Notes under the pieces: generated by a model
Told to the model about the DNA's origin: nothing
Databases searched by the model: none
What the model saw: the letters and a program-made list of their open reading frames with translations, nothing else
In this document: positions 22,275-51,658 of the stretch, piece by piece
Layout: every line of letters begins with the position of its first letter
How positions within the stretch are numbered: the first letter of the stretch is position 1
Translations under genes and position numbers: made by a program
From: an uncultured Clostridiaceae bacterium
GTDB taxonomy: Bacteria; Bacillota; Clostridia; Monoglobales; Firm-18
DNA: 64,000 nt
Assembly: GCA_964573775.1 (NCBI GenBank)
Contig: CAZNKU010000003.1
Location: 2,997-66,996 of the forward strand
Reading direction: 5' to 3'

Positions 22275-22282
22275 GATTATGT

Positions 22283-24471: not shown

Positions 24472-24502
24472 AATCTTTTCTCCCCTTTGTATAGTTATAA
24501 TA

Positions 24503-24648: not shown

Positions 24649-24677
24649 TATATCACCAATTTTTATATTTTGGATTT

Positions 24678-24761
24678 CGGCAGGAGTACCCACAGGGCAC
24701 AGGCAACCCTGTCCTACGATTGTGTTTTATCTTGCGGTACGTCGAAGTCGCCGTACCCTAC
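24678..24761 (-). repeat. Two REP-type units between the RAYT fragment and the S24 peptidase gene
   Basis: 24692-24717 has stem ACAGGG/CCCTGT plus CCTAC. 24734-24761 is GCGGTACGTCGAAGTCGCCGTACCCTAC, 1 nt different from 18253-18280. Confidence 0.75.
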
Positions 24762-24763
24762 GA

Positions 24764-25237
24764 TTATTTAGATTTATCTTTGCGTCTGAACTTCATTGCA
24801 AATTTAAATACAGACGGTCTTACAGGCAACACAAGGCACCACAAAAAGCTGTATATTCTGTACCAAAGACATTTAGTGCTATATTCCTTGCCCTTACGTT
24901 CAAAGGAAGTCATTACTGCCAATATATCTTCTTGCTTAACAGGATATTCTATGGCAACCTGGTCATCGCCGCAAAGCTTAAAACCAAGCTTGCCTTTGCC
25001 CACCACACGGTGCAAAACGTAACTTCCGTCTGCACGGCGATACAAAATTATATCACGCTTTTTAATTTTTTCTGCCCCTGCAACAGTAACCTTATCTCTG
25101 TTATTTATAAACAGGGGATACATACTGTTGCCAACTACCGTAAACTTTATTTCCCTGCCCATTTCTAAAAACGGCAAGGATATATTTACAATATCCTCCA
25201 TAGAGGTCAGTGAAAATCTACCAATTAAATCAGACAT
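24764..25237 (-). CDS. S24/S26-family (LexA/signal-peptidase-like) serine peptidase with a C-terminal hydrophobic segment
   Basis: GNSMYP Ser-nucleophile motif, downstream ..YVLHRVVGKG.., and a hydrophobic stretch IYSFLWCLVLPV. Confidence 0.65.
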   Translation of the reverse strand: MSDLIGRFSLTSMEDIVNISLPFLEMGREIKFTVVGNSMYPLFINNRDKVTVAGAEKIKKRDIILYRRADGSYVLHRVVGKGKLGFKLCGDDQVAIEYPVKQEDILAVMTSFERKGKEYSTKCLWYRIYSFLWCLVLPVRPSVFKFAMKFRRKDKSK

Positions 25238-35905: not shown

Positions 35906-37612
35906 TTATAAATTTTCATTTGCCTCTTTTTCAAGAACGGTATAAGCAACCTTGCCAACCAAGGTTTTCGGCAGACTTTCACGGAATTCTATATCGTATG
36001 GCATAGCATACTTTGCAATATGCTTTTTACAATGCTCCAATATACTCTGTTTTGTTTCTTCGTCGGGCTTGTGACCTTCCTTTAAAACAACATAAGCCTT
36101 TATCTTCTGCATTTTATATTCGTCCTTAACACCTATAACACAGCTCATAACTACTGCATCGTGTGCATCTATTATATTTTCAAGCTGTGACGGATAAACA
36201 TTGTATCCGCTGGTGATAATCATTCTTTTAATACGCTGTTTAAAATATACAAAGCCTTCGTCGTCCATATATCCGAGGTCACCTGTATGAAGCCATACCT
36301 CACCGTCGTCATGCTTTTGCAATGTGTCGGCAGTTTCTTTAGGGTGGTTTATATATTCCATCATAACAGTAGGACCGCAAAGGCATATTTCACCATCTGT
36401 AGCGTAAGGTACCTCCTCTGTTGTGCCTGGCTTGCATATTTTAAAATATGTATCAGGGTATGGAAGACCAATACTACCCTCTTTTTCAATATGATAAGGT
36501 GTAAGACAACAAGCTGTTACACACTCGGTTGTACCGTAGCCTTCACGTACACGAATGCTTGCATTGTGATTTTTCAAAAATTCATCAAACTTCTTTTTAA
36601 GTTCTATTGAAAGCGAATCGCCACCTGAAAATACACCCATAAGGTGACTAAGGTCTGCACCGTCAAGATAGTCACTGCGTATAATAGCCTCGTAAAGTGT
36701 AGGCACACCTGCAATGTAGTTTGGCTTTTCCTTTTTAATAAGCTCGGAATAGCTTTTAACATTAAATTTGGGTACAAGTATCGAACAACCGCCCACAACA
36801 AGCATAGTATGTACACATACACCCAAGCCAAAGCCGTGAAACATAGGCATAGCCGCAAGCATTCTTTTACCGCACACCTCTGCATTACACATTACGGCAG
36901 TCTGTATTGCCAAAGCATTAAAGTTATAATTTGAAAGTAATATACCTTTTGTTACACCTGTTGTACCGCCTGAAAAAAGTATAACGGCAGCATCTTCACC
37001 CTTTTTATCAACCTTCACTTTTCCTGCATAAAGCTTGCCTGCGTTTATAAATTCCTTCCACTTTTTAGTATCTTCACCGTACTGAGGCTTTGTAAACTTT
37101 CGTTCGGTTAAATTACGGTATGCAAATGCCTTTACAGCACCAAGCTCGTCGGAAACACTTGCAATTACAAGTTTTTTGACACTTATATTTTTACGAACTT
37201 CTGTAAATTTATCATAAAACTGGTCAACAGTTACAACACAGCAGCTTTCAACTTCCTTAAGGTAAAATTCTATTTCACCTACTGCAGAAAGAGGATGTAT
37301 CATACTTGCAACAGCACCAATTTTATTAAGTGCATAAAGGCAATATACAGTCTGCGGAATATTTGGCATACAAAGTGTTACTCTGTCACCCTCACAAATA
37401 CCATATGCTTTAAATGCACGTGCTGTAGCGTCAATACTCTTTACAAGGCTGCTGTAAGAAATATGTCTGCCCATAAAGGCAAGTGCTGTGTAATCAGGAT
37501 ATTTTTTTGAAATTTCCTCCACCGCATCATACATCGAATGTTCAGTATATTCAAGATTAAAAGGAATATCTCCGTAATATTGAAGCCATGGTGTTTTTAT
37601 ATTTTCTTTCAT
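35906..37612 (-). CDS. AMP-dependent synthetase/ligase (acyl-CoA ligase-like)
   Basis: AMP-binding motif LFSGGTTGVTKG, GYGTTE, and a C-terminal conserved Lys region. Confidence 0.8.
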   Translation of the reverse strand: MKENIKTPWLQYYGDIPFNLEYTEHSMYDAVEEISKKYPDYTALAFMGRHISYSSLVKSIDATARAFKAYGICEGDRVTLCMPNIPQTVYCLYALNKIGAVASMIHPLSAVGEIEFYLKEVESCCVVTVDQFYDKFTEVRKNISVKKLVIASVSDELGAVKAFAYRNLTERKFTKPQYGEDTKKWKEFINAGKLYAGKVKVDKKGEDAAVILFSGGTTGVTKGILLSNYNFNALAIQTAVMCNAEVCGKRMLAAMPMFHGFGLGVCVHTMLVVGGCSILVPKFNVKSYSELIKKEKPNYIAGVPTLYEAIIRSDYLDGADLSHLMGVFSGGDSLSIELKKKFDEFLKNHNASIRVREGYGTTECVTACCLTPYHIEKEGSIGLPYPDTYFKICKPGTTEEVPYATDGEICLCGPTVMMEYINHPKETADTLQKHDDGEVWLHTGDLGYMDDEGFVYFKQRIKRMIITSGYNVYPSQLENIIDAHDAVVMSCVIGVKDEYKMQKIKAYVVLKEGHKPDEETKQSILEHCKKHIAKYAMPYDIEFRESLPKTLVGKVAYTVLEKEANENL

Positions 37613-37633
37613 ATACAGTTACCAATCTTTCTA

Positions 37634-38518
37634 TCAATATTCTATTTCTGTTTTAATAGGCTTATCCAGAATTTCAGGATTTTTCAAAATTGCACGCAAA
37701 AGTCTTATACTCTTTGCAAAGTATACGCCGTCTGCAATACGTTCGTCTATTGTAAGGCCTAAATCCACACATTCGTGTAACTCCATATTTCCCTCTTCAT
37801 CATATACAGGGTGTTTGTGCTTTTCACCTATTACAACAAAAAATGAATTTGTACCCCAGTTTGCAAGATGATGATAATTTGCATTCATCTTTATACTGCC
37901 GAGGTTGGAAAGAAAAACGCTTGAATGGTAAGGGTCAATCTTTAAAAAGAAGCTTGGTAACCAACCGTGGTATTCCAAAAAATTAAGTACCTTGACAAAA
38001 ATCTTCAAAAGCCATCTTGGAAGCTTTGCAAGAACGCCCATAACATCCGTTGCACCGTCGTTTTTATTTTCCTTACGTACACTGTATACTATCTTTTTAA
38101 TCTTTTCCCTTATCTGCACCATTGGTGATTCTTCACTGTCACGGTCAACATTTACAATTGCCAATGTTTCGGGAGCATTATCCGTAAACTTCTTTTTAAC
38201 AGTAAATGCAAGCACAAGGTCTTTTTTCTCGTACAATCTGTAACCCGAATAAAAATAATTCATTTTAGGACGCATAGTCATAACCTTTGCTACAGCCGCA
38301 CAAAAGACGTGAAACAAAGTATATTTAAATTCAGGATTATCCTTGTTTTTTTCTTCAAGATATTTCATTACTGCAGTAAGGTCTACTTTTTCATTTAAAA
38401 CCGCCTCATTATCTGCACGGTTTGGTAATAAATAGGGCATAAAATTATGCATAGGGGCCGTTTCTCTTATACGGTATGCATCCTTTCTATCTCCCCATCT
38501 TTTCTTTCTCTCTTCCAT
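37634..38518 (-). CDS. CAT/2-oxoacid-dehydrogenase-E2-catalytic-domain-like acyltransferase
   Basis: 294 aa. A C-terminal DERIADG lies at the position of the family DHRxxDG motif, with typical preceding beta-strand patterns. Confidence 0.5.
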   Translation of the reverse strand: MEERKKRWGDRKDAYRIRETAPMHNFMPYLLPNRADNEAVLNEKVDLTAVMKYLEEKNKDNPEFKYTLFHVFCAAVAKVMTMRPKMNYFYSGYRLYEKKDLVLAFTVKKKFTDNAPETLAIVNVDRDSEESPMVQIREKIKKIVYSVRKENKNDGATDVMGVLAKLPRWLLKIFVKVLNFLEYHGWLPSFFLKIDPYHSSVFLSNLGSIKMNANYHHLANWGTNSFFVVIGEKHKHPVYDEEGNMELHECVDLGLTIDERIADGVYFAKSIRLLRAILKNPEILDKPIKTEIEY

Positions 38519-38763: not shown

Positions 38764-38966
38764 AAAAAGAATTATAACTATAAAACCGCAAGGAAAACAT
38801 CGAATTTTCCTTGCGGTTACTTGCTTTTTGCCAATTTGAACTCTACCGTACCATCGTACGCCGACGAATTCAAATTGACAAAATATAACTTCCTTTTTCG
38901 AAATCTGCCAGCGTGTCGATAGGTTTATCGACACTCCGAAGGCAAAGCGATGCTTTGCCTTTTAAT

Positions 38967-40250
38967 TTAGAACAATATAATTAAGAACTGTGAAATCAGT
39001 ACTACCGCAATAAGAGCTATTGGGTATGTAGCCGCATAAGCAGCCGCAACATCTTCAGTACCTGCAACACCTATAAGTGTACCAAGAGCAGGAGTACTTG
39101 TCATACCGCCTGTAATTGAACCAAGGTTGTTAAGAAGACTAAGCTTCAATACATACTTAGCAAACAAGAAACCAATGATTAGAGGTACTATTGTCATAAT
39201 AACACCGTATACAAAGTACATTGGGTCGAAGTTAGCAACAAAGTCTGCACCGCCCGGGATACCTGCACCTACAAGGAACAGTACAAGACCAAGCTCTCTG
39301 AAAAGCTTTAATGTATGTGTATCGGGCATAATGCAAAGCTTACCTATTCTGCCGAAGTGCCCCATCACAAGTGCAACAAGCAGACAACCACCTGTTGTTG
39401 TAAGAGCAAAGCATGTACCCGAAAGACCTGCGCCCGAAAGAGGTATCTTAATTGCACCTACAAGTATACCCAACACAGCCGCAAGGGAAAATGCCGCAAA
39501 GCCGTGTCCGTCAAGATGCAAAAGTTTAAGGTTATTACTTTTTGATTCCGCTTTTTCATCCTTTATTGCAATTTTTGCTCGCTCAACTTCCATATCAGCC
39601 TTTGCCATTTTTGGAATAATCTGAACAAATAATACAACACCGATAACACCGAATATGTAAGCTATACCGTGACCTACAGAAACCAGACTTGTATAATCAA
39701 CGCCCAATGTTGCCGCTTCACTAGCAACAGTTGCCTTAGCAGCAGAAAATGCAGGAGTTGATGTAAGTGAGCCTGAAAGCAAGCCTACAATCATAGCTGT
39801 AAAGCCTTCTGATGTGCCTGCAGGACCAAAGCCAATACCTTTACCCATATAAATACAAGCAACAGCAGCAAGACCTCCCGCAATGATTATAATAAGACCA
39901 AGCAAAACGTATGATTTAAAGTTTTTCTTCATATTACCGAAGAACTTAGGTCCTGCAATGAAACCAACTGATGTTACAAATAGGATAAGGCCTATTTTTT
40001 CAATAATATCTAATGCCTTTTCAGTAAAGTTAACAGCTTCTGCTTCCCCCTTTATAATAAGTTGGCTTGCCAACGGGTCAAACAAAAGTGCCCCGAAAAC
40101 AAGAGCAACAACGAATACGCCTGCATCACCAAGACATACACCTTTGATTGTAATACGTCCCAATGCATAACCTACAAAAAGAACTGCAAAAAGACAGAAC
40201 ATCAAAAATGTAGTGCCTGTAACGGGAATAACTCCTCCAAATAATGTCAT
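38967..40250 (-). CDS. AAE-family (aspartate:alanine exchanger / YidE-YbjL / SucE-like) permease
   Basis: 427 aa. The Asp-Al_Ex-type pattern GRITIKGVCLGDAGVFVVALVFG is repeated in the second half (FGRIGKLCI..). The ATG at 40250 follows an AAGGAAG RBS. The 588-aa ORF-track version overlaps the upstream gene. Confidence 0.65.
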   Translation of the reverse strand: MTLFGGVIPVTGTTFLMFCLFAVLFVGYALGRITIKGVCLGDAGVFVVALVFGALLFDPLASQLIIKGEAEAVNFTEKALDIIEKIGLILFVTSVGFIAGPKFFGNMKKNFKSYVLLGLIIIIAGGLAAVACIYMGKGIGFGPAGTSEGFTAMIVGLLSGSLTSTPAFSAAKATVASEAATLGVDYTSLVSVGHGIAYIFGVIGVVLFVQIIPKMAKADMEVERAKIAIKDEKAESKSNNLKLLHLDGHGFAAFSLAAVLGILVGAIKIPLSGAGLSGTCFALTTTGGCLLVALVMGHFGRIGKLCIMPDTHTLKLFRELGLVLFLVGAGIPGGADFVANFDPMYFVYGVIMTIVPLIIGFLFAKYVLKLSLLNNLGSITGGMTSTPALGTLIGVAGTEDVAAAYAATYPIALIAVVLISQFLIILF

Positions 40251-40311
40251 TTTTATCTCTTCCTTTCTAAATATACCACAGGGCCGAACAAAATTCGTCC
40301 TGTAAGTTTTA

Positions 40312-41907
40312 TTATTTTCTACGTGTATAATCAGGCAACAGTCTTGGTGAAACAGTTGTTGTTTCAACACCTGCGGCCTTTCTTTCAGCATCAAACTTGT
40401 TGATGTGTTCCAAAGTAAGTGTGCCAACCTTAACATCCTTAGATTTTGCAGATGCATTTTTACCTGCATTTCTGCCAAATACGATAATGTCAAGCAACGA
40501 GTTACCCATAAGTCTGTTTCTGCCGTGGATTCCGCCAACAGCTTCACCTGCAACATAAAGGTTTTCAATGTTTGTAACACCTTCAGCGTTAATCTTAAGA
40601 CCACCGTTCTGGTAATGGAGTGTTGGGTAAACAAGGATAGGTTCTTTACGAATATCGATACCATACTTAGCGAACATTCTCCACATAGCAGGGATTCTCT
40701 TAATAATAGTACCTTCACCATGAATCTTTTCAATCATCGGAGTATCAAGCCATACAGCTCTGCCGTTAGGAGTTTCAACACCGTTTCCTCTTTCGCTGCA
40801 TTCACGAATGATAGAAGCTGCAGAAACGTCACGGGTTTCCAACGGATGCATGAATACTTCACCGTTTACGTTAATAAGCTTAGCACCCAATGAACGTACC
40901 TTTTCAGTAACCAATGCACCGAAAATCTGGTCAGGGAATGCCGCACCTGTTGGGTGATACTGTAAGGTATCAGCATATATAAGCTCTGCACCTGCACGAT
41001 AACCAAGTACTAAACCATCAGCTGTAGCACCGTAGTGGTTTGATGTGGGGAATCCCTGGTAGTGAAGTCTGCCTGCACCACCTGTTGCAATAACAACTGT
41101 TTTAGCCTTTGCAACAAGGATTTCCTTTGTTTCCATGTTCATCAAAACTGCACCTGCAGCCTTGCCTTCATCGTCAAGAATAAGTTCAATAGCAGATGTA
41201 AAGTCAACAACTGTAATACCTCTGTTTAGAACCTCGTCACGAAGTGTACGCATAATTTCAGCACCTGAATAGTCCTTTGCAGCGTGCATTCTCTTTCTTG
41301 AAGTACCGCCACCGTGTGTTGTAACCATTCTACCATCTGCGTCTTTATCGAATTCTACGCCAAGGTCGTTAAGCCATTTAATAGCATCAGGAGCCTCGTT
41401 AACAAGCTTGTAAAGAAGCTCAGGAACAGCAGCGAAATGTCCGCCACCGAAAGCATCTATATAGTGGATAGCGGGGGAATCGTTTTCCTTATCAGCAGCC
41501 TGAATACCGCCTTCTGCCATCATTGTGTTAGCGTCACCGATACGAAGCTTTGTAACAATCATAGTTTTAGCACCGTTGTTGTCAGCTTCAATAGCAGCAG
41601 ATGAACCTGCACCGCCACCACCGATGATAAGTACGTCCACGTCATAATCAGGGTTTGAAAGGTCCACATCACCAGGCTTAATTCTGCTTTCGCCTTCAAG
41701 CAAAGCAACAAGCTCTGTTGGAACCTCACCGCCCTTGTTGGGACCAACTGTCAGTGTTCTGAATTCTTCCTGCTTGTAATCAGGATGGAAAGTCGCAAGC
41801 AATTTTTCTTTTTCTTCAGCAGTCATTCTGCGTGGTTCGTATGCTGTATTATTATCTCTTGCAGCTTCAACTTTCTTAATTGATTCTTGGAATTCTTTAC
41901 TGTACAT
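40312..41907 (-). CDS. FAD flavoprotein of the fumarate reductase / succinate dehydrogenase / L-aspartate oxidase family
   Basis: Dinucleotide fold DVLIIGGGGAGSSAA (residue 91 onward), QYHPTG, and HGRNRLMGNSLLD near the C-terminus. Confidence 0.75.
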   Translation of the reverse strand: MYSKEFQESIKKVEAARDNNTAYEPRRMTAEEKEKLLATFHPDYKQEEFRTLTVGPNKGGEVPTELVALLEGESRIKPGDVDLSNPDYDVDVLIIGGGGAGSSAAIEADNNGAKTMIVTKLRIGDANTMMAEGGIQAADKENDSPAIHYIDAFGGGHFAAVPELLYKLVNEAPDAIKWLNDLGVEFDKDADGRMVTTHGGGTSRKRMHAAKDYSGAEIMRTLRDEVLNRGITVVDFTSAIELILDDEGKAAGAVLMNMETKEILVAKAKTVVIATGGAGRLHYQGFPTSNHYGATADGLVLGYRAGAELIYADTLQYHPTGAAFPDQIFGALVTEKVRSLGAKLINVNGEVFMHPLETRDVSAASIIRECSERGNGVETPNGRAVWLDTPMIEKIHGEGTIIKRIPAMWRMFAKYGIDIRKEPILVYPTLHYQNGGLKINAEGVTNIENLYVAGEAVGGIHGRNRLMGNSLLDIIVFGRNAGKNASAKSKDVKVGTLTLEHINKFDAERKAAGVETTTVSPRLLPDYTRRK

Positions 41908-41922
41908 TACTTGCTCACCTCC

Positions 41923-42597
41923 TTATTTCTCTATTTCTCTGTTATTGTAAAGTTCTTTCATTTCTTCAATAGGCCTCTGCATCAATTCTTCAAGAAGCTT
42001 TACAAAATCGCCGTTTTCAATTTCCTTAACTCTGTTTTCAAGATGTTCTGTCTTTGGAGCAAGGTATTTACCTGTAATACGTCTTGCAAGCATAGCAACC
42101 TGAGGATGAGAGATACCTGCAGGACAACGGGAAGAACATACACCGCACATTACGCAGTCAAATGATTCTTCAGCGCATTTTTCAAATTCGCCACGCTGAG
42201 CATAAGCAATGTACTGCATAACGTTAAGCTCCTGAGTACAGCTCTTTGTACAAGCATTACAGCCGATACAAGCGTAAATTTCAGGATAAAGCTGCATCAT
42301 AACAGCTTCTGTAACAGGTATCTTTTCGATATCATAAACCTGTTTAACAAGTGGGAAGAAAGGAAGTGTTGCAATGAACATACCTTCTTCAACCTTTGTC
42401 TGGCAAGCAAGGCAAACCTTAAGTTCCTTGTCGCCCTGAATTCTGTATATTGTTGCACAGGCACCGCAGAAGCCGTTACGGCATCCGCAACCACGTACAA
42501 GCTGATAGCCGGCATATTCCATAGCGCCCATAATTGTAAGCTCTGATGGAACAGAATATTTTTTGCCGTATAAATAAATGTCAACAAATTTTTCCAT
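41923..42597 (-). CDS. FrdB/SdhB-like iron-sulfur subunit
   Basis: N-terminal 2Fe-2S-like cysteines (RGCGCRNGFCGAC), then CIGCNACTKSC and CVMCGVCSSRCP. Confidence 0.7.
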   Translation of the reverse strand: MEKFVDIYLYGKKYSVPSELTIMGAMEYAGYQLVRGCGCRNGFCGACATIYRIQGDKELKVCLACQTKVEEGMFIATLPFFPLVKQVYDIEKIPVTEAVMMQLYPEIYACIGCNACTKSCTQELNVMQYIAYAQRGEFEKCAEESFDCVMCGVCSSRCPAGISHPQVAMLARRITGKYLAPKTEHLENRVKEIENGDFVKLLEELMQRPIEEMKELYNNREIEK

Positions 42598-42618
42598 TGT
42601 CTTTGTCCTTTCTATCTA

Positions 42619-43446
42619 TTAATATTCATCCGGCAAGGCATCTAACTGGTCGAAACGGAAAACCGGACCGTCCTTGCAGACATACTTGGAACCGATGTTA
42701 CATCTGCCGCATTTACCCACAGCACATTTCATCTTAAGCTCCATAGTTGTGTAAACCTGTGTTTCCTTAAAGCCAAGTTCCTTAAGTGCTGCCAATGTGA
42801 ACTTAATCATAATTGGCGGACCGCACATCAAAACTGTTTTGCTAAGGTCTGGGTTAACTTCTTTAACGTAATTAGGAACAAAGCCAACGTGACCATCCCA
42901 GTTGTCCTGTTCACGGTCGATTGTAAGGTGAACGTTAATACCGTCCTCCTTCATCCATTCGTTAACTATTTCTTCATAGTCAACCAAATCTTCCTTAGAA
43001 CGTGAACCGTAGATAATATCAATAGTACCGTAGTTAGCACGGTTGTCACGGCAGTAGTTGATAACAGAACGTAGCGGTGCAAGACCTATACCACCTGCTA
43101 TAAACAGAAGGTCTTTACCCTTAAGGTCAGTTTCAACAGGGAAACCGTTACCGTAAGGTCCGCGTACCGTAATCTGCTGACCAACTTCCATAGCGTGTAG
43201 CCATTCTGTTACACAGCCGCATCTTTTAATGGAAAATTCCATATAGTTAGTCTGTGTCGGTGAAGAAGTAATTGAGAACAACGCCTCACCTACACCGGGC
43301 ATTGAAAGGAATGCACACTGTCCCGGCATATGCTTGAACATAACGCCGCCTTCAGGAGCTTCTACTCTGAAGGTTTTAACATCAGGAGTATCTGTTCTGA
43401 TATCTGTTACGATACCAACTTTTGGTATTAAAACATCTTCTCTCAT
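42619..43446 (-). CDS. FAD/NAD(P)-binding oxidoreductase with a C-terminal 2Fe-2S site (AsrB / PyrK / FlxA-like)
   Basis: Ferredoxin-reductase-type fold (FSITSSP, LLFIAGGIGLAPL) and C-terminal CAVGKCGRC..C. Confidence 0.75.
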   Translation of the reverse strand: MREDVLIPKVGIVTDIRTDTPDVKTFRVEAPEGGVMFKHMPGQCAFLSMPGVGEALFSITSSPTQTNYMEFSIKRCGCVTEWLHAMEVGQQITVRGPYGNGFPVETDLKGKDLLFIAGGIGLAPLRSVINYCRDNRANYGTIDIIYGSRSKEDLVDYEEIVNEWMKEDGINVHLTIDREQDNWDGHVGFVPNYVKEVNPDLSKTVLMCGPPIMIKFTLAALKELGFKETQVYTTMELKMKCAVGKCGRCNIGSKYVCKDGPVFRFDQLDALPDEY

Positions 43447-44471
43447 TATTCATTCACCCCCAAAGCCTTAATAACTTTTACAATGTTCATTGAAACAGGG
43501 CACTTCTGCAAGCATCTGCCGCAGCCTACACAGCCGTAAACGCCGTCGTTGTTAGCAGGGAAGTATACAAGCTTGTGCATAAATCTCTGTCTGAAGCGTT
43601 CTACCTGGCTGTTACGGTTGTTACCGTGTGCCATTTTTGTAAAGTCGGAATACATACATGAATCCCAACATCTGTATCTTTGGATACCATGACCTGTATC
43701 ATAGTCACGGATGTCGTAGCACTGGCATGTAGGACATATAAAAGTACAAGTACCGCATCCCAAGCATGATGATGAAAGTTCATTCCACAATGGTGAATTG
43801 AATTTTTCCATCATATGTTCTTCATCAAAGCCGTCAAGACAAAGGTCCTTTAGTGGAAGTTTGTCTAAAATCTTTTTAATTTCTTCCTGCTTGGCAGTAA
43901 CCTTTGCATCATCAGTTTCAGCAAGTACGTCTTTAGCAAGGTTCAGCGCCTTTTCGCCTTTTTCATTGTTAGCCCTGATGCAAAGCTCACCGTCTACAAT
44001 CCATGCAGTTGCATCTGCAACAGGGTTTGCAGGGTCGATACCAAAAGTTGTACAGAAGCAAGTTTCTTCAGGCTCGCCGCAAGCAAGTGCAACGATTACT
44101 ACCTTTTCTCTTCTTTCAGCATAAAAGCTGTCAACAGGCTCTGCAAGGAATACCTTGTCAAGAATTTCAAAGCCCTTTAAATCACATCCGCGTACACCGA
44201 AAAGAATAGTAGGTTCACTTGGGTCACGGTTTTCAATAACTTCCACAGTTTTATCACCTGTTTTAAAAGCAACAAGATTTTCTGTCTGTGGGAAGAAAAT
44301 ATCCTTAGGAGATTTTATAGTATTAAGGTTTGTAAGGCAAACCTCCATACCTTCGCTCCACATTTTGTAGTTAGAGCTGTTATCATCCTGCTTAATGGGT
44401 GCGTATACAGCGTTTTCCTTTGAAAAAGCCGCAAATAACTTATCTATATCGTTAAGTGAAATCTTAAACAT
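43446..44471 (-). CDS. 4Fe-4S dicluster protein (AsrA / sulfhydrogenase-beta / FlxB-like)
   Basis: CLGCGTCTFICPTCQC and CVGCGRCLQKCP motifs. Confidence 0.65.
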   Translation of the reverse strand: MFKISLNDIDKLFAAFSKENAVYAPIKQDDNSSNYKMWSEGMEVCLTNLNTIKSPKDIFFPQTENLVAFKTGDKTVEVIENRDPSEPTILFGVRGCDLKGFEILDKVFLAEPVDSFYAERREKVVIVALACGEPEETCFCTTFGIDPANPVADATAWIVDGELCIRANNEKGEKALNLAKDVLAETDDAKVTAKQEEIKKILDKLPLKDLCLDGFDEEHMMEKFNSPLWNELSSSCLGCGTCTFICPTCQCYDIRDYDTGHGIQRYRCWDSCMYSDFTKMAHGNNRNSQVERFRQRFMHKLVYFPANNDGVYGCVGCGRCLQKCPVSMNIVKVIKALGVNE

Positions 44472-45448
44472 TACTGCGCACCCCTTTCTTTAACAATGCT
44501 TGGCTCTACATCTTCTTTAGTAAAGCTTGTAAGCGGAGGTACTGTTTCAAGGTCTGCACCTGCCTGATATTCGCCATAAAATTCATTTATATCCTTAATG
44601 AATTTACGGTTAAGCAAATGAAGCGGTATGTTCTGAGGACATACTCTTGCGCATTCACCGCAGTCTGTACAACGTCCGCAAACGTGGAAAGCTCTTATAA
44701 TATGGAACATATTTTCTTCAAAAGTATCCGCATTAGCCTTACTTGCTACGCCTGAATTTGCATTGTCAAATACACAAGTTGTGCAAGTACAAGCAGGGCA
44801 GGCATTTCTGCAGGCATTACATCTGATACATTTTGAAAGCTGACTTCTCCAGAATTCAAATCTTTCTTCTGATGTCATATTTTCAAGCTTTTCAACCATT
44901 TCAAAACGGTCAACTGTCGGTGTTTCAAATTCTTCACCAATTACTTCATCAGCGCAAACGTGCTTTTTACCTTTACAGCAAAGACACTTATCAAGCAAAA
45001 CTTCGTTTCTGTCAAGCTCCTTGTCACCGTACAAAGTAGATATTTTAAGTGTTTTACCGTCATCTTCAATCTTTTCGATACCCTTAATGCCTTTTGCCCT
45101 AATCTTTTCGATATCAAGCTTACCCTGGCAAGGAATACCTACGATTGTAATATTTTCTCTTTTAATCCTATGCTCTTTAATAAGCTGGTTAATACTGTAT
45201 GTATCACAAGGCTTCAAAAAGGCAAGGATTTTTTCATCGCCCTTTGTTTCACGTACAAGATACTTTGTAAGATTGCTACCGCAAAAGCTGTCATATGTGA
45301 AACCGTCAAGGCTGTCGTCTTTAGTAAACAAAGCAGGTGTAGGGTCATAGAAGAATTCGCCCTGTTTCCAGGCAAGTACTTTATTAACTGTACCGTCTGC
45401 AAGTAATTTTTCTGCTTTTTCTTTCATTAAATCGAAAACTCTTTGCAT
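44471..45448 (-). CDS. FeS oxidoreductase subunit (FlxC/FrhB-like)
   Basis: CIRCNACRNACPACTC and CGRCTDCGECARVCP motifs. A strong GGAGG RBS precedes the ATG at 45448. Confidence 0.55.
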   Translation of the reverse strand: MQRVFDLMKEKAEKLLADGTVNKVLAWKQGEFFYDPTPALFTKDDSLDGFTYDSFCGSNLTKYLVRETKGDEKILAFLKPCDTYSINQLIKEHRIKRENITIVGIPCQGKLDIEKIRAKGIKGIEKIEDDGKTLKISTLYGDKELDRNEVLLDKCLCCKGKKHVCADEVIGEEFETPTVDRFEMVEKLENMTSEERFEFWRSQLSKCIRCNACRNACPACTCTTCVFDNANSGVASKANADTFEENMFHIIRAFHVCGRCTDCGECARVCPQNIPLHLLNRKFIKDINEFYGEYQAGADLETVPPLTSFTKEDVEPSIVKERGAQ

Positions 45449-45876
45449 CTCAAATCCTCCAATCTCTTATTCTCACCTAATTCGTGGATTTTCTTTGCAA
45501 AATCATTCATTGTATCAGCAAACTTAGCACCTTCAGCTGCAGAAACCCATTCAACACGTGTACGGTCTCTTTCAATACCCAAAAAGTCAAGCATACTGAA
45601 CAACAATGTCATTCTTCTTCTTGTATAATAGTTACCTGTTGTGTAGTGGCAGTCACCTGGATGACAACCGCAAAGGATAACACCGTCTGCACCCCTCTGG
45701 AAAGCACGAAGGATAAACATAGGGTTAACACGGCATGAGCAAGGCACACGGATAATCTTTACATTTGCAGGGTAGTTAAGTCTGTTAGTACCTGCAAGGT
45801 CAGCGCCTGCATAACTGCACCAGTTACAGCAGAATGCAACAATCAACGGTTTGAATTCTTTGTTTTCTATTTGCAT
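45427..45876 (-). CDS. mvhD: MvhD/FlpD-like hydrogenase iron-sulfur delta subunit
   Basis: FCCNWCSYAGADLAG and CSCRVNP..GADGV...GCH.GDCHY patterns. Confidence 0.8.
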   Translation of the reverse strand: MQIENKEFKPLIVAFCCNWCSYAGADLAGTNRLNYPANVKIIRVPCSCRVNPMFILRAFQRGADGVILCGCHPGDCHYTTGNYYTRRRMTLLFSMLDFLGIERDRTRVEWVSAAEGAKFADTMNDFAKKIHELGENKRLEDLRCKEFSI

Positions 45877-47852
45877 ATTGCATCCACCTCCGCCATGATT
45901 TGTCTGTTAGAAAATCCCTTAAGGTCCATAGCGCCTGAAGGACAAGCTACTGTACAAGCACCGCAGCCCTGACATACTGCTTCGTTAACCTGTGCAACAC
46001 GTCTTACCTCCATACCTCCCGGGATTCTGAATTCCTTATCTGCATACGTAATAGCACCGTAAGGACATACCTTTTCACACTGTGAGCAACCGTTACAAAG
46101 CATTTCATTAGACTGAGAAACGCATGGGTTACATGTAAGCTTATCTTTTACAAGCAAGCCTATAACCTTAGCAGCAGCGGCAGAAGCCTGAGATACTGTT
46201 TCAGGAATATCCTTAGGACCCTGACACATACCCGAAAGGAACACCCCTGCTGTTGGGCTTTCTACAGGGCGAAGCTTTGGATGAGCTTCTGTGAAGAAGT
46301 CGTTTGTATCCATACTTGCTGTAAGCTTTGTAGCAAGAGGACGTGCAGTTTCATCAGGTTCAATAGCAGCAGCCAAAACTACCATATCAGCACTGATGTG
46401 TAGCTGTTCGTTTGAAATAAGGTCTGAAGCCTGAACTTCAAGCTTACCGTTTGAAGGAACAACCTTGCCAACCATACCCTTGATGTAATGTACACCGTAT
46501 TCTTCAACAGCACGGCGGTAGAATTCATCAAAGTTCTTACCGGGAGTACGTACGTCAATATAGAATACATAAACGTCCGTATCGGGATATTTTTCTCTTG
46601 TAAGCATAGCATGCTTTGCTGTATACATACAGCAAACCTTTGAACAATAAGGCTTACCGCAGCCTGAAGTATCACGTGAACCTACACACTGCACGAAAAC
46701 AATTGTGTGTGGATGTTCACCGTCAGAAGGTCGAAGTAAAGTACCGTTTGTAGGACCTGCCGCGTTCATAAGTCTTTCATATTCAAGTGATGTAACTACG
46801 TCAGGACTCTGCTTATAAGCAAATTCCTCGTATTTATCAAGATTAATTGTGTTAAAGCCTGTTGCAACAACAATTGCACCATATTCTCTTTCCACAAATT
46901 CATCCTTTTGAGTATAGTCAATAGCCTTAGCACCGCAAACCTTTGAACAAACACCGCACTTACCTGTTTTTAACATTGTGCAGTAGTCAGGGTCAATTGT
47001 AGCAACCTTAGGTACAGCCTGTGCAAAAGGAATGTAGATTGCACGCTTTGTATCCATACCCATATTAAAGTCGTTAGGAACTTTTTTCTGTGGGCATTTT
47101 TCTGTACATACGCCGCAACCTGTACATAAATCTTCGTTTACATAACGGGCTTTTTTTCGTATTGTAACGTTAAAGTTACCTACGAAGCCCTTAACATCTT
47201 CAACCTCACTGTAAGAGAAAATGTTAATCTTTTCATTCTGTGCAACGTCAACCATTTTAGGTGTAAGGATGCATGCCGCACAGTCAAGTGTTGGAAAAGT
47301 CTTGTCAATCTGCGCCATTTTACCGCCGATTGTAGGCTTTTTCTCAACGATATCAACTTCAAAACCTGCTTCTGCAATGTCAAGAGCAGTCTGAATACCT
47401 GCAATACCGCCACCGATAACCAAGGCTCTCTTTGTAACAGGGCTTTCACCTGCTTTAAGCGGTGTGTTAAGCTGTACTTTAGCGATAGCAGCTCTGCCAA
47501 GTATAACCGCCTTTTCAGTAGCAGTTTCCATATCCTTATGAATCCATGAGCACTGTTCACGGATGTTTGCAATTTCAACCATATATGGGTTTAAGCCTGC
47601 TGCCTGAGCAGTCTTACGGAATGTAGCTTCGTGCATACGAGGTGAACATGAACATACAACGATACCTGTAAGGTTATGCTCCTTAATGGCATCCTTAATC
47701 ATATTCTGACCTGCTTCAGAGCACATGTACTGATAGTCAACAGAGAAAACTACGCCCGGTTCATTTTTAAGTGTTTCAGCAACCTTATGCACATCAACAG
47801 TAGCAGCAATGTTACTTCCGCACCAACATACAAATACGCCTATTCTTTGCAT
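45867..47852 (-). CDS. hdrA: Heterodisulfide reductase subunit A-like flavoprotein
   Basis: 661 aa with an N-terminal VFVCWCGSNI, the FAD fold VIGGGIAGIQTALD, and four ferredoxin-type CxxCxxCxxxCP motifs. Confidence 0.85.
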   Translation of the reverse strand: MQRIGVFVCWCGSNIAATVDVHKVAETLKNEPGVVFSVDYQYMCSEAGQNMIKDAIKEHNLTGIVVCSCSPRMHEATFRKTAQAAGLNPYMVEIANIREQCSWIHKDMETATEKAVILGRAAIAKVQLNTPLKAGESPVTKRALVIGGGIAGIQTALDIAEAGFEVDIVEKKPTIGGKMAQIDKTFPTLDCAACILTPKMVDVAQNEKINIFSYSEVEDVKGFVGNFNVTIRKKARYVNEDLCTGCGVCTEKCPQKKVPNDFNMGMDTKRAIYIPFAQAVPKVATIDPDYCTMLKTGKCGVCSKVCGAKAIDYTQKDEFVEREYGAIVVATGFNTINLDKYEEFAYKQSPDVVTSLEYERLMNAAGPTNGTLLRPSDGEHPHTIVFVQCVGSRDTSGCGKPYCSKVCCMYTAKHAMLTREKYPDTDVYVFYIDVRTPGKNFDEFYRRAVEEYGVHYIKGMVGKVVPSNGKLEVQASDLISNEQLHISADMVVLAAAIEPDETARPLATKLTASMDTNDFFTEAHPKLRPVESPTAGVFLSGMCQGPKDIPETVSQASAAAAKVIGLLVKDKLTCNPCVSQSNEMLCNGCSQCEKVCPYGAITYADKEFRIPGGMEVRRVAQVNEAVCQGCGACTVACPSGAMDLKGFSNRQIMAEVDAICK

Positions 47853-47869
47853 TTTACGTTTTCTCCTCC

Positions 47870-48262
47870 TTACTTACTGTATTTTCTGAACGCACTTACA
47901 ATAGCCTGCTGTGGCAAATCCTCATCAAGCAAGCCAGGAACGTCGTTAGGTGTCATGTGGTTTGCACCCTGCTGTCTTATCTTCATAAGTCTTACAGCTT
48001 CAATAACATTTGCAGGTTCAACACCTCTTGGGCATCTTTCAACACATGCAAAGCATGACAAACACTTGTAGATTGATTTTGATTCCATCAAAGGTTCAAT
48101 GTTGCCCTTTTCAACCATATATACGAATTCATGTGGATGATATTCCATTTCATCGTACGAAGGACAAGTTGCGGAGCATTTACCGCATCTCATACATTTC
48201 AGAACATTAACACCACTTGTACGGAGGATTTGTTCTGTTTTTTCAGGGTTTTTGTTATACAT
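47870..48262 (-). CDS. hdrC: Heterodisulfide reductase subunit C-like
   Basis: Two 4Fe-4S motifs, CMRCGKCSATCP and CLSCFACVERCP. Confidence 0.75.
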   Translation of the reverse strand: MYNKNPEKTEQILRTSGVNVLKCMRCGKCSATCPSYDEMEYHPHEFVYMVEKGNIEPLMESKSIYKCLSCFACVERCPRGVEPANVIEAVRLMKIRQQGANHMTPNDVPGLLDEDLPQQAIVSAFRKYSK

Positions 48263-48276
48263 TTTAAAATCCTCCT

Positions 48277-49059
48277 TTATTTAACATCCAAAGCTTCAGC
48301 TAAAAGCTCTGTGAAATAGTAAACGGGAACATCATATTCTGTGCCATTCTTTTTAAGATTGTACATACAAAGCGGACAAGCTGTAATAACCATTTCAGCA
48401 CCGTTTTCAACAGCATCTTTCAAAACGTTGTTGCTCTTTTTCTGTGCCAATGCTTTGTCCTCCATTGTAACGTAACCGCCACAGCATTCGTTACGCATTG
48501 GATAAATTACAGGCTCACCGCCAAGTGCACGGATAAAGTCCTCAATAATTGTAGGATTTTCCGGATTATCCATCTGCATAGTTTTGCTTGGACGAAGAAG
48601 CATACAGCCGTAATAAGCCGCAATCTTCTTTCCTTCAAAAGGTTTTTTAACAGCTTCAGCAATTTTGTCAAAGCCGATTTTATCTCTTAACATTTCAAGG
48701 TAGTGAATAACATTTGTTTCACCTGCATAAGGTTCTTCAAGCTGCATATAGTTGTTAGCCTTTGTGCGGATGTTGTCATCATTTTTCATATCGTCATTAA
48801 CTCTTTTAATAACGTGATGACAAGCAGAACAAACGGTTACAAGGTCCTGCCCCTTTTCTTTGGAATAAGCAAGAGCACGTACGGATGAAAGTTTGGATGC
48901 GACTTCGTCCTTACCCATTGTGTAGACGCCGCCGCAGCACTGCCAATCCGGTATTTCTTCTAAAGTTACCCCTAAAGCTTCTGCAGATTTTCTTGCATAT
49001 GTATCAAGGTCAACCGCTTTAGTTTTAAGAGTACAACCAGGATAATAACTAAATACCAT
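48277..49059 (-). CDS. hdrB: Heterodisulfide reductase subunit B-like (two CCG domains)
   Basis: YYPGC...CCGG...C and YYGC...CCGG...CPLC patterns. Confidence 0.8.
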   Translation of the reverse strand: MVFSYYPGCTLKTKAVDLDTYARKSAEALGVTLEEIPDWQCCGGVYTMGKDEVASKLSSVRALAYSKEKGQDLVTVCSACHHVIKRVNDDMKNDDNIRTKANNYMQLEEPYAGETNVIHYLEMLRDKIGFDKIAEAVKKPFEGKKIAAYYGCMLLRPSKTMQMDNPENPTIIEDFIRALGGEPVIYPMRNECCGGYVTMEDKALAQKKSNNVLKDAVENGAEMVITACPLCMYNLKKNGTEYDVPVYYFTELLAEALDVK

Positions 49060-49096
49060 AACTCTTTTCCTTTCAAAAATTATTTGTTGAAAAACT

Positions 49097-49131
49097 TCGA
49101 TAGAAACGGCATATGGCGTCTCTATCGAAAA
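49097..49131 (-). terminator. Hairpin between ldh and hdrB (terminator or attenuator candidate)
   Basis: Minus-strand hairpin TTCGATAGAGACGCC..GCCGTTTCTATCGAA followed by GTTTTT. Confidence 0.4.
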
Positions 49132-49164
49132 TTTTTACTCATTTTTAAAGTACCTTAAAAGATT

Positions 49165-50118
49165 CTACAAGTTAATACTTTTAATAACTTCTTTAAGCTT
49201 ATCTGCACTTGCACGAAGCTTTGCAATTTCATCATCTGTAAGTGGAAGGATAACCTTACCGCTTGCACCTTTGTCATCGATAACAGCAAGTGTGCTTATA
49301 CATACATCATCAATGCCGTATTCACCGTTGTGCATTGTAGAAACAGGAAGTGCTGTCTGCATATCGCCGAAAATACATGAACAGATGTGACATACACAGG
49401 TTGCTACTGCATAGAAAGTAGCACCCTTTCTTTCAATAATAACACCACCGGACTTTCTTACAAATTCAATCATTTCGTCATAGTCAAATGATGAAGGTTG
49501 TTCGTCTCTGTACTTAACGGAATCCCAGTACTTTTCAAAAGGTACATTTGAAATTGTACTTACTGACCACGGAACAAACGATGTGTCACCGTGTTCACCC
49601 AATACAAGTGCGTGTACGTTCTGTGGGTTAATTGAATAATTGTCTGCAATTTTTGCACGAAGTCTTGCAGTATCCAAAAGTGTACCTGAACCGATAATCT
49701 GATTTCCAGGCAAACCTGAGAACTTAGCAAAAGCATAAGTCATTACGTCAACAGGATTACTTACTATAATATATATAGCATTTGGAGCATACTTAACAAT
49801 TTTTTCAGTAATACTCTTCATAGTATTTACGTTAGTCTGTGCAAGCTCCAATCTTGATTGACCGGGCTTTCTTGCAATACCTGATGTGATAATTACGATA
49901 TCAGAATCCTTAGCATCAGGATAGTCACCTGCATATATGTTTACAGGACTGCAATAAGGAGTACCCTGAGCAATATCCATTGCTTCCCCCTTTGCTTTTT
50001 CCACATTAATATCTATCAGACAAATTTCTGAAGACAAACCTTTTGTTACCATTGTGTAGGCGATAGTAGAGCCAACGCTACCTGCACCTATAATCGTCAC
50101 CTTATGACTCATTTTCAA
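49165..50118 (-). CDS. ldh: L-lactate dehydrogenase
   Basis: KVTIIGAGSVGS Rossmann motif and a catalytic-loop/His region (GEHGDS-type: LGEHGDTSF). Confidence 0.9.
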   Translation of the reverse strand: MKMSHKVTIIGAGSVGSTIAYTMVTKGLSSEICLIDINVEKAKGEAMDIAQGTPYCSPVNIYAGDYPDAKDSDIVIITSGIARKPGQSRLELAQTNVNTMKSITEKIVKYAPNAIYIIVSNPVDVMTYAFAKFSGLPGNQIIGSGTLLDTARLRAKIADNYSINPQNVHALVLGEHGDTSFVPWSVSTISNVPFEKYWDSVKYRDEQPSSFDYDEMIEFVRKSGGVIIERKGATFYAVATCVCHICSCIFGDMQTALPVSTMHNGEYGIDDVCISTLAVIDDKGASGKVILPLTDDEIAKLRASADKLKEVIKSINL

Positions 50119-50529
50119 ATCCTCCCTATAATTCAGTCAAAAGCAAATGATTGTCAATTTTTTAACAAAGACATACAAGCCAATAAGGGTGAAATACCCA
50201 CCCTTTTCAAAAAAAATACAATATATTTATAACTTTTTACTATTATTTGTTCCCGAAAACCTCCGAGGATACATTACTACGAATTATAACACACATTCTG
50301 ACAAAATTCAATACCTTTTTGTTAAATTTTTATCAGGTTTTTTATATCTATTACATATTATTAAATATGGAACAAAAATTCCATGGTTTTGTGGCAATTT
50401 TACACATAGAGTTAATATTTGTGTATTTCAAAAAAGCTTTCTTTGTTACTAAAGATAATGCATTGATTAACATTACAAAGGTAACGCGATGTGGAGTGTA
50501 ATCTGAAGGACAGTAATTGTAAGTTACTA

Positions 50530-51193
50530 TCCTTTTTGGGTACTTAAAGATATAATAATGTCTCCGACGGGGCACTTTTTTTGAAAAAAGTACCAAAAAA
50601 ACTTCAAGTCGGTTCTGTCGGTAAGAAAATGTAGTTGCTCAGCTCGTAATTGAGCCGTCGGGAATATTCGCGACCTTTCGCTCAGAGTCCCTAAAACCGC
50701 CCGCCAGCAGCGGAAAATGATACGGGCGGTTTTTCGCCTCAATCAACATCGCTTTCGCATACATTTTCTAAACCTCCGCCACAGACTTGTTTTTTCGTAG
50801 GAAAGTATGTGGCACTGAATAAAGATAGTTTTAAAATTAAAATGTGGCACATACTTTCCCATAAGTCAACACGCCGTAGAGAGAGGGATTGCAAATCGTT
50901 TCGAAGTTTTGAAAAAATTGGCGTAAAATTGCACATATCATTTCCCTCTGCTGATGTGCAATTTTAGGGGCTCGCGCAATGGGTTTGCGTATAGCCCCGT
51001 GCGACAATTTTAAGAAACTGACGAATTACGAGTTGCTGACCGAACGTCCCGGCGCCGATTTTTGCTTACTTATTGCGGATGAGTCCAAATCTTTGATTTG
51101 GCTAACGAATCCCATACAAAGGATGTCCAAGAAAACGAGCAGAGCGAAGTTTGATTGGAAACAGCCCCTGCTGTCGGCGCAAAAGTAAGTCCC
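50530..51193. repeat. Mosaic island B of short hairpin modules (M2 50871-50953, M5 50954-51000, M3 51001-51072 plus 51167-51193 interrupted by M1)
   Basis: Module-by-module match to island A (4240-4870). Confidence 0.8.
51075..51166 (+). repeat. Module M1 copy B, inserted in the terminal hairpin of module M3
   Basis: GCGGATGAGTCCAAATCTTTGATTTGGCTAACGAATCCCATACAAAGGATGTCC...GGAAACAGCC. Confidence 0.8.
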
Positions 51194-51619
51194 CCGCGGA
51201 CAGCGGAAAAACTTGTTGCATTTTTAAATTTTGTATGGTACAATTAGTTTGCGACACAACTTAATAGAGTTACCAACATAGGGTGTTTTTTTGTTTTGGC
51301 AAAAATGCACGCTCTCTTTTACACGCTTATGTTGGTGTCTAAAAGTTGTGTCGCAGCAAACGAGCTGTGCATTTTTCGGTGTACGGCTTATGTCGTGCAC
51401 CTTTTTTATCTTATAGGAAATTACTACACATGTGGTGTATGTAATTTCCTATATTACACAAAAGTGCACCTTAATCCCCTCAAGATTGAGGGTTGATGCT
51501 TGCCGGTGGCAAGCGCCTATCAACGACCGTAGCGGACAGCGTAGACCAGGGGAGTTGATGTGTTTTTCAAAACACTTTTTTATTTATAAAACGTAAGCTT
51601 TATCATTGCGACTTGAAAA

Positions 51620-51655
51620 AGAAATCCGCAGAAATTTATTACTCTGCGGATTTCA
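51620..51655 (-). terminator. Terminator of the THUMP methyltransferase gene
   Basis: Hairpin GAAATCCGCAGAG..CTGCGGATTTC followed by TTTTTC on the minus strand. Confidence 0.6.
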
Positions 51656-51658
51656 ACC

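Follow-up and report, generated by a model that had tools for sequence, protein, structure and literature searches.

Within a 64,000-nucleotide stretch of DNA from an uncultured Clostridiaceae bacterium (GenBank assembly GCA_964573775.1, contig CAZNKU010000003.1, positions 2,997 to 66,996 of the forward strand; called the window throughout), eleven intact open reading frames (ORFs) lie closely packed on the minus strand between positions 38967 and 50118. They bring together an Hdr/Flx-type electron-transfer module, a pair of genes resembling those for the flavoprotein and iron-sulfur (FeS) subunits of fumarate reductase (frdA and frdB), a gene for a malate-dehydrogenase-like enzyme and a gene for a permease of the AAE family. 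The FrdAB pair is, very likely, a fumarate reductase that works functionally with Hdr/Flx in a succinate-producing branch. A first-pass annotation, made from the letters and the ORF translations, had described such a string, and its gene assignments, order and position were all borne out by searches of the ORFs against Pfam and NCBIfam; its count of ten genes has to be raised to eleven. In the direction of transcription (FAD, flavin adenine dinucleotide), these are:

49165..50118, minus strand: 2-hydroxyacid dehydrogenase of the lactate dehydrogenase (LDH) clade, predicted NADH-dependent malate dehydrogenase (MDH; gene mdh); Ldh_1_N and Ldh_1_C
48277..49059, minus strand: HdrB-like protein with two CCG domains; PF02754 twice
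47870..48262, minus strand: HdrC-like 2x[4Fe-4S] subunit; Fer4_8, Fer4_17, TIGR03290, NF041779
45867..47852, minus strand: HdrA, FAD and multi-[4Fe-4S]; NF040770 (HdrA2), 805 bits over residues 3-660
45427..45876, minus strand: MvhD/FlxD [2Fe-2S] connector; PF02662 (FlpD) 189 bits, 5odc_D 177 bits
44471..45448, minus strand: FlxC-like FeS protein; 4Fe-4S dicluster domain at residues 203-274, cluster position conserved
43446..44471, minus strand: FlxB, AsrA/ShyB-like FeS protein; Fer4_22, ShyB 188 bits, AsrA 154 bits
42619..43446, minus strand: FlxA, FAD/NAD(P)H and [2Fe-2S] protein, predicted entry point of NADH; FAD_binding_6, NAD_binding_1, DHODB_Fe-S_bind
41923..42597, minus strand: FrdB-like FeS subunit; Fer2_4, Fer4_9, weak TfrB and SdhB matches
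40312..41907, minus strand: FrdA-like flavoprotein, predicted fumarate-reducing subunit with predicted non-covalent FAD; PF00890
38967..40250, minus strand: AAE-family permease, predicted succinate exporter; PF06826 twice, TIGR01625 twice

The core genes, spaced by -22 to +21 nt, with mvhD and hdrA overlapping by 10 nt, are one operon-like string.

The Hdr/Flx module and FrdB

All seven subunit types of an FlxABCD-HdrABC set are encoded together at this locus. HdrA, the site of bifurcation in characterised Hdr complexes, is represented by a protein of full-length architecture, with N-terminal, FAD, inserted ferredoxin and C-terminal ferredoxin domains. It aligns with 5odc_A at 698 bits (residues 3-658 against 5-648 of 654), and the cutoffs of the archaeal equivalog models are not reached. 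Both five-cysteine CCG motifs of HdrB are complete in the translation, and the protein is predicted to carry two noncubane [4Fe-4S] clusters. HdrB aligns over residues 2-257 with its methanogen counterpart 8rvv_B (E = 7e-38) and scores 146 bits on TIGR03288 (equivalog cutoff 345) and 134 bits on the SdhE anchor model (cutoff 500). FlxA scores 204 bits on AsrB and 236 bits on PRK08345, and the N-terminal 200 amino acids (aa) of FlxC gave no family match in Pfam or NCBIfam.

The translated FrdB contains an SdhB-type [2Fe-2S] motif and two complete CxxCxxCxxxC motifs, and so should bind two [4Fe-4S] clusters and no [3Fe-4S] cluster. The view that the Frd pair has no membrane anchor subunit also stood up, since none is encoded among the genes of the string.

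An N-terminally extended family of FrdA-like flavoproteins

The flavoprotein is 531 aa long, matches PF00890 at residues 91-471 (227 bits), and does contain the QYHPTG and HGRNRLMGNSL motifs that had been read from the letters. It carries a 90-aa N-terminal extension, conserved throughout its family (consensus ...HPDY...FGxNxG...), and the Pfam search gave no match to the C-terminal helical domain PF02910. Among curated families, TfrA (NF004900) is the best match, at 342 bits against a cutoff of 718, with only positions 6-411 of the 546 in the model aligned. Two other members of the family, P0121 and P0135, behave alike on this model (334 and 322 bits), compared with 765 bits for the true TfrA P0198. 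On the generic SdhA/FrdA model the window protein scores 279 bits, far below the cutoff, and on the NadB model TIGR00551 it scores 273 bits against a cutoff of 452.75.

A search of 1.84 billion representative proteins returned a compact family of N-terminally extended homologues of 41-56% identity, beyond which came short NadB-like and full-length TfrA/Sdh1-type proteins at about 35-43%. These last two kinds of protein also stand apart from the N-extended family in a neighbor-joining tree, a crude one (distances, midpoint rooting, some fragments) that we use solely for this separation of groups. By these comparisons, the flavoprotein belongs to a family of its own, to which TfrA is nearest. 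The Glu that follows "TG" (SGAEIM) was considered as a marker of NadB and dropped, because Sdh1 of M. smegmatis has the same Glu.

Six residues of the flavoprotein, H318, T320, E335, R338, H431 and R465, are invariant in both family alignments (A1 and A2) and align with dicarboxylate-binding and catalytic residues of SdhA and FrdA (HPT, TExxR, HYxxGG, NRL). The fumarate-binding Arg/His set is thus conserved, as His/Thr/Glu/Arg/His/Arg. The His that holds FAD covalently in 7d6v_A and 1nek_A is replaced by Asn127, and this Asn, too, never varies within the family. Enzymes that oxidise succinate efficiently need covalently bound FAD, and an Asn at this position fits a reductase better than a succinate oxidiser. 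The AlphaFold2 model (pLDDT 85.7), in which the N-terminal extension is confidently folded, has E. coli FrdA (1kf6_A) as its top fold match, with a TM-score of 0.71; NadB comes at rank 49. On residues and fold alike, the flavoprotein is predicted to be a fumarate reductase. In addition, the 727-aa protein P0122 is a natural FrdB-FrdA fusion, with residues 1-224 being 39% identical to the FrdB and residues 229-727 being 56% identical to the FrdA of the window. This fusion is Rosetta-stone evidence that FrdB and FrdA act together.

Conservation of the cluster and its surroundings

To follow the cluster among close relatives, we scanned one genome per GTDB species and obtained at least 80 loci with an FrdA 72-91% identical to that of the window; the 600 matches in the scans reflect a loose motif and are no count of clusters. 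Among the matches listed, the close loci are almost all from metagenome-assembled genomes (MAGs) labelled as gut or rumen Clostridia, together with Yeguia hominis and MAGs assigned to Ruminococcus flavefaciens, a known succinate producer (L061 and L072). Cultured carriers are Y. hominis, Solibaculum mannosilyticum and Phocea massiliensis. Where enough upstream sequence was available among the listed matches, the order hdrB-hdrC-hdrA-mvhD-flxC-flxB-flxA-frdB-frdA was colinear in 53 of 54 loci, the sole exception being L069, in which a CitMHS transporter gene precedes frdBA.

The Frd pair also keeps its link with Hdr in distant relatives, as seen in 80 further loci from a scan of metagenomes that was seeded with homologues of 41-47% identity. 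Here, frdBA genes whose products are 50-58% identical to those of the window adjoin hdrCBA-mvhD, arranged in no fewer than five different ways, some including flxCBA and others not. In one environmental metagenome (L098:8782-18157), genes for a ferredoxin, FrdB, FrdA, HdrC, HdrB, HdrA and MvhD are followed by those for the small and large subunits of a [NiFe] hydrogenase and a maturation protease; no Flx homologue was found in this locus, which may encode an H2-driven Mvh-Hdr-fumarate reductase. In another locus (L101), a 2-oxoacid:ferredoxin oxidoreductase is encoded 3' of frdA. Family members with no Hdr genes nearby are still found among genes of the tricarboxylic acid (TCA) cycle, as in two loci: one (L148:4533-13693) with aconitase, monomeric isocitrate dehydrogenase (IDH), frdBA and sucCD, the other (L156:6400-12725) with the alpha and beta subunits of a class I fumarase, malic enzyme, frdBA and a family III CoA-transferase. 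A linkage that withstands rearrangement, together with a donor module that appears exchangeable, is what would be expected if FrdAB were the high-potential acceptor arm of an HdrA-based complex.

The first gene of the string had been read as ldh, and its product does belong to the LDH clade: it passes the cutoff of the L-LDH model TIGR01771 (340 bits against 303.55), and its top matches in the PDB are L-LDHs throughout. It also passes the cutoff of the model for LDH-like MDHs, NF004863 (291.7 bits against 283). Aligned with LDH structures, the window protein has ITSGIARKPGQSR against ITAGAAQKPGETR, and around specificity position 102 it reads ITSGIA-R-KPGQSR where the LDHs read ITAGAA-Q-KPGETR, so that the Gln102 of L-LDHs is an Arg. 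Wilks et al. are said to have reported in 1988 that this very change, Q102R, turns LDH from pyruvate to oxaloacetate. Since Arg102 is kept in 38 of 39 cluster-linked homologues and the NF004863 cutoff is passed, the gene product is most likely a malate dehydrogenase, an assignment that strengthens the succinate-branch reading. Because the Arg102 enzyme passes the L-LDH cutoff, it is probably mis-annotated as L-lactate dehydrogenase in many genomes. From sequence reading, the catalytic residues of LDH and those of the fructose-bisphosphate site (ARLR...NVH) are still present.

In most relatives, a class II fumarate hydratase of 454-458 aa (FumC; TIGR00979, 700-739 bits, above cutoff) is encoded between mdh and hdrB. 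Of 51 loci, 36 have mdh-fumC upstream (5') of hdrB and 10 have fumC without mdh; a lone mdh, the arrangement of the window, occurs in 1, and 4 have neither gene; class II fumarase thus precedes hdrB in 46 of the 51. For comparison, the fumarase gene of one relative (L001:1421-2785) stands against positions 49060-49164 of the window, the junction of mdh and hdrB. The direct mdh-hdrB junction recurs in L161, an independent assembly of a 98%-identical strain, and the lack of a fumarase gene in the operon is therefore real for this lineage and no artefact of assembly. An NCBIfam scan of ten other ORFs of the window found no class I fumarase among them. A gene pair at 18277-19692, of the right size for such an enzyme, proved to encode a Y1 transposase and an unknown protein.

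Three candidate transcription signals accompany the string:

50283..50311, minus strand: candidate sigma-70-type promoter upstream of mdh; TTGAAT-17-TATAAT with extended TG, 10/12 positions, by consensus match alone
49095..49130, minus strand: terminator-like hairpin between mdh and hdrB; 14-bp stem, 8-nt loop, TTTTT tail
38784..38818, both strands: bidirectional terminator-like hairpin closing the operon; 15-bp stem, T-runs on each side

The second of these had been placed at 49097-49131 as a possible partial insulator of the first gene. The hairpin itself is real, at 49130-49095, and the RNA fold of the mdh-hdrB intergenic region has a z of -3.0; as to insulation, it is possibly a partial terminator. 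No good promoter match was seen between the hairpin and hdrB.

At the other end of the string, the permease does fall into the AAE family as first proposed, with two Asp-Al_Ex domains and no central TrkA-C domains, and it is the start that needs correction. The longest ORF (38967-40733) overlaps frdA; the plausible start is the Met at about 40250, from which the hydrophobic protein runs, giving 427 aa, and the gene is called at 398 aa in the 98%-identical strain. That its gene comes immediately after frdA in 46 of 66 related loci is the sole reason for which we predict succinate as its substrate. In about nine other loci, the permease after frdA is replaced by a conserved hydrophobic protein of 101-115 aa with predicted membrane helices, which matches nothing in Pfam or NCBIfam and may be an alternative succinate exporter. 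This small protein shows the motif FGLSWPISIRKS...RTAKGKS (examples are L004:11625-11936 and L069:11620-11967).

Just downstream of the operon, at 35906-38518, lie an AMP-binding (acyl-CoA-synthetase-like) gene and a gene for a 294-aa protein in which a 2-oxoacid dehydrogenase acyltransferase domain is represented by its C-terminal part alone. Strain L161 has this pair too; it lacks the MatE gene that the window carries at 34523-35890. Upstream of mdh, the 1.5 kb at 50119-51658 contain no ORF of more than 101 aa. Because parts of this spacer recur at 4399-4880 and 20372-20469 with 84-100% identity, it contains a dispersed non-coding repeat; Rfam gave no match in the spacer or anywhere else in the window. 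Elsewhere, a palindromic, REP-like element of 46 nt occurs seven times between 19881 and 24767. Two genes for Y1/IS200-like (RAYT-like) transposases occur at 18277-18801 and 22283-22774, with a third, partial paralogous segment at about 24495-24685. The region 18277-25237 also includes a 235-nt duplication (19762-19996 and 20109-20343, 99% identical). A further segment, of 95 nt and ending in a terminator-like hairpin, is duplicated at 864-958 and 1066-1160, 202 nt apart and 97% identical.

Proposed mechanism and its alternatives

As far as sequence goes, an NADH- and ferredoxin-coupled cytoplasmic fumarate reductase with succinate export, as put forward in the first-pass annotation, is the best-supported reading. 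The fumarate-binding set is conserved, and the Frd pair is co-conserved with Hdr/Flx in close relatives and stays linked to Hdr in distant, rearranged ones; the thiol:fumarate reductase logic of that annotation is part of the reading. We lean towards a specific form of it, namely an electron-bifurcating, NADH-driven and ferredoxin-reducing fumarate reductase that ends an oxaloacetate-to-succinate branch and is followed by succinate export. The "confurcating" version offered at the same time makes no thermodynamic sense, given that NADH and reduced ferredoxin can each reduce fumarate unaided.

From gene content, intact domains and motifs, and co-conservation, we infer the following scheme, including the contact between its subunits, the route of the electrons and their bifurcation, the direction of the reaction and the substrate of the permease. 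FlxABC, MvhD (FlxD), HdrABC and FrdAB would form a soluble multi-subunit complex. The Arg102 enzyme would convert oxaloacetate to malate, and a fumarase, encoded in the operon of most relatives and elsewhere or not at all in this genome, would supply fumarate. NADH would be oxidised at FlxA, its electrons passing via the FeS clusters of FlxB and FlxC and via MvhD to the FAD of HdrA, where the electron pair would be split. The low-potential electron would leave through the ferredoxin domains of HdrA to ferredoxin. The high-potential electron would travel by way of HdrC and the pair of noncubane clusters in HdrB into FrdB, follow its [4Fe-4S]/[4Fe-4S]/[2Fe-2S] chain and reach the non-covalently bound FAD of FrdA, at which fumarate would be reduced to succinate, to be exported by the AAE permease. 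Overall, the complex would catalyse 2 NADH + Fd(ox) + fumarate → 2 NAD+ + Fd(red) + succinate, and the reduced ferredoxin (Fd) could feed Rnf or a hydrogenase, yielding a quinone-free equivalent of fumarate respiration. With potentials of +33 mV for fumarate/succinate and -320 mV for NAD+/NADH (PMC5861303), the downhill branch can pay for ferredoxin reduction, as in butyryl-CoA dehydrogenase/Etf (Bcd/Etf).

Several points weigh against this scheme. No fumC turned up in the 64-kb window when it was searched by tblastn with the fumarase of L001, and the terminator-like hairpin sets mdh apart from the rest of the string. The cysteine motifs of HdrB are of the type that forms a disulfide-reducing site, which may allow for a thiol intermediate. 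In the literature, we found no biochemical or structural proof of Hdr-Frd bifurcation, either for this complex or for its homologues. Finally, Hydrogenobacter thermophilus has a soluble, five-subunit, NADH-dependent fumarate reductase for which no need of ferredoxin is reported in a secondary account (Miura 2008, via PMC13147460).

The last of these lends some weight to a plain soluble NADH:fumarate reductase without bifurcation, in which Flx and Hdr would be a mere wire and ferredoxin would not be reduced; electron transfer from NADH to fumarate is strongly exergonic alone, at -58 kJ/mol (PMC13147460). We nevertheless regard this as unlikely. It leaves unexplained why 53 of 54 relatives, and the rearranged clusters of distant ones, keep MvhD and a full-length, bifurcation-type HdrA with its ferredoxin-like domains; moreover, Flx and Mvh hydrogenase seem to be interchangeable as donor modules, as in known bifurcating Hdr complexes, and H2 inhibits succinate formation in Pseudoclostridium thermosuccinogenes (PMC7282089). 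Slightly less probable again is a thiol/disulfide carrier that links two enzymes, such that Flx-Hdr would bifurcate and reduce a disulfide (of a small thiol or a DsrC-like protein) and FrdAB would re-oxidise the thiol. Published models leave this route open ("and thiols", PMC7282089; "by way of ... a DsrC-like protein", PMC11636981). HdrB retains all ten CCG cysteines of the heterodisulfide site, and TfrA is the nearest curated family of the flavoprotein. Yet FrdB has no CCG domain, unlike TfrB, each cluster encodes a single CCG protein, and a carrier gene would not fit into a core whose genes are spaced by -22 to +21 nt.

That the flavoprotein might instead be an L-aspartate-oxidase-like dehydrogenase, as the first-pass annotation had offered, or an enoate reductase of another substrate, feeding or draining Hdr while the permease moves aspartate or alanine, seems to us very improbable. 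The NadB and SdhA/FrdA models do score closely (273 and 279 bits), the catalytic residues are common to NadB, the AAE family includes aspartate:alanine antiporters, and the window has no fumarase. Against this stand an FeS partner subunit that is always present and at times fused to the flavoprotein, whereas NadB is a stand-alone enzyme, and a family-wide linkage with fumarase, MDH, succinyl-CoA synthetase, aconitase, IDH and other TCA genes. Likewise, the top matches are TfrA among the profile models and FrdA among folds, where NadB ranks 49, and the short NadB-like proteins form a separate clade. Reverse operation, in which succinate would be oxidised and its electrons confurcated with those of reduced ferredoxin to make NADH, strikes us as the most far-fetched of these possibilities: bifurcating complexes are reversible in principle, but the flavinylation His is replaced by an invariant Asn, and the surroundings, in gut Clostridia that live by fermentation, are those of a branch from oxaloacetate to succinate with a permease of the exporter type.

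The idea of a ferredoxin-reducing fumarate reductase is already published as a hypothesis for P. thermosuccinogenes and for tubeworm symbionts. For the former, Koendjbiharie and van Kranenburg (preprint 2019, via PMC7282089) proposed that fumarate reduction is coupled to ferredoxin reduction. The "succinate operon" of this species comprises genes for fumarate hydratase, the seven Flx-Hdr subunits, a two-gene fumarate reductase and a putative succinate transporter; it is co-regulated, goes up about four-fold under CO2 limitation, and H2 abolishes succinate formation (PMC7282089). Judged by its described layout, this operon resembles the string in the window, with Flx-Hdr genes, then the frd pair, then a transporter. 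It begins with fumarate hydratase, whereas the string described here, from an uncultured Clostridia lineage, begins with the predicted LDH-derived MDH and is without fumarase.

For the tubeworm symbionts, Rubin-Blum et al. 2019 described tfrAB interspersed with flxABCD-hdrABC and korABCD in clusters for the reverse TCA (rTCA) cycle and suggested a single complex (PMC6315080); Mitchell et al. 2024, who supplied co-expression data, did not decide between direct transfer and a route via a DsrC-like protein (PMC11636981). In a survey of 2026, the idea still has the standing of a suggestion (PMC13147460), and the review of Buckel and Thauer 2018 does not have such an enzyme among those it lists. 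In these symbionts and in Thioflavicoccus mobilis, as in the window, a soluble two-subunit fumarate reductase adjoins Flx-Hdr, and one bifurcating complex has been proposed (PMC6315080, PMC11636981, PMC13147460); the genes of the cluster are co-expressed, except tfrAB. The symbiont clusters belong to autotrophic Gammaproteobacteria that use the rTCA cycle and include a 2-oxoglutarate:ferredoxin oxidoreductase, in contrast to the fermentative cluster of the window with its predicted exporter. Loci of the L101 type are nearer to these rTCA-type clusters.

In Desulfovibrio vulgaris, Ramos et al. are said to have proposed in 2015 the disulfide of DsrC as acceptor, with an alcohol dehydrogenase gene as partner. 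The FlxABCD-HdrABC of that species has the same seven subunit types, according to secondary accounts (Ramos et al. 2015, via PMC7282089 and PMC5861303); the window differs in having FrdAB attached and in its reversed gene order (hdrBCA-flxDCBA). Methanogen TfrAB is akin in that TfrA is the nearest curated family, the true TfrA P0198 being 41% identical to the window FrdA. Heim et al. reportedly found in 1998 that TfrB combines a [2Fe-2S] cluster and two [4Fe-4S] clusters with CCG domains, a content that FrdB and HdrB together would reproduce. Unlike TfrAB, the window set has an FrdA without the C-terminal domain and with the 90-aa N-terminal extension, and its CCG domains are on a separate protein of the HdrABC set.

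Similarly, HdrA, HdrB and MvhD align over their full length with those of MvhAGD-HdrABC (PDB 5odc, 7bkb, 8rvu), and L098 has Mvh-type hydrogenase genes; the predicted acceptor is fumarate via FrdAB rather than CoM-S-S-CoB, and the predicted donor in the window is NADH via Flx. In type E SdhABE, too, a CCG-domain protein partners an SdhAB pair, and the window HdrB scores 134 bits on the SdhE model, below its cutoff; that enzyme, unlike the window set, is membrane-associated and quinone-dependent and has a full-length SdhA. A functional analogue is Bcd/Etf, in which the NADH-driven reduction of an enoate-type C=C bond (E0' about -10 mV, compared with +33 mV for fumarate) drives ferredoxin reduction (PMC5861303); its proteins and its bifurcating flavoprotein (Etf, not HdrA) are unrelated to the window set.

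New here are the re-assignment of mdh, the fumarase-less variant, the tight conservation of the core in gut and rumen Clostridia, the definition of the flavoprotein family (N-terminal extension, no C-terminal domain, no flavinylation His), the FrdB-FrdA fusion and the hydrogenase-linked variant. We would go further only with the chances evenly balanced. In this extended picture, the nine proteins would be one soluble supercomplex in which the HdrB clusters purely relay electrons to FrdB, with no thiol or disulfide. For many gut and rumen Clostridia, R. flavefaciens among them, this would be the main quinone-independent, energy-conserving way of making succinate; it would also be modular, with H2-driven Mvh-Hdr-Frd and rTCA-embedded versions. 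If true, such a supercomplex would be the first Hdr-type bifurcating enzyme with a C=C bond as high-potential acceptor.

If the bifurcating fumarate reductase that we favour is real, it would answer what Flx-Hdr reduces in bacteria without sulfate respiration, and how Clostridia free of quinones and cytochromes, such as R. flavefaciens and P. thermosuccinogenes, gain energy while reducing fumarate. Because some carriers of the cluster are in culture, the hypothesis can be put to a direct test. Succinate is a major cross-feeding metabolite of gut and rumen and an industrial target, and a ferredoxin-generating fumarate reductase would, if true, alter the redox and ATP balance assumed in metabolic models.

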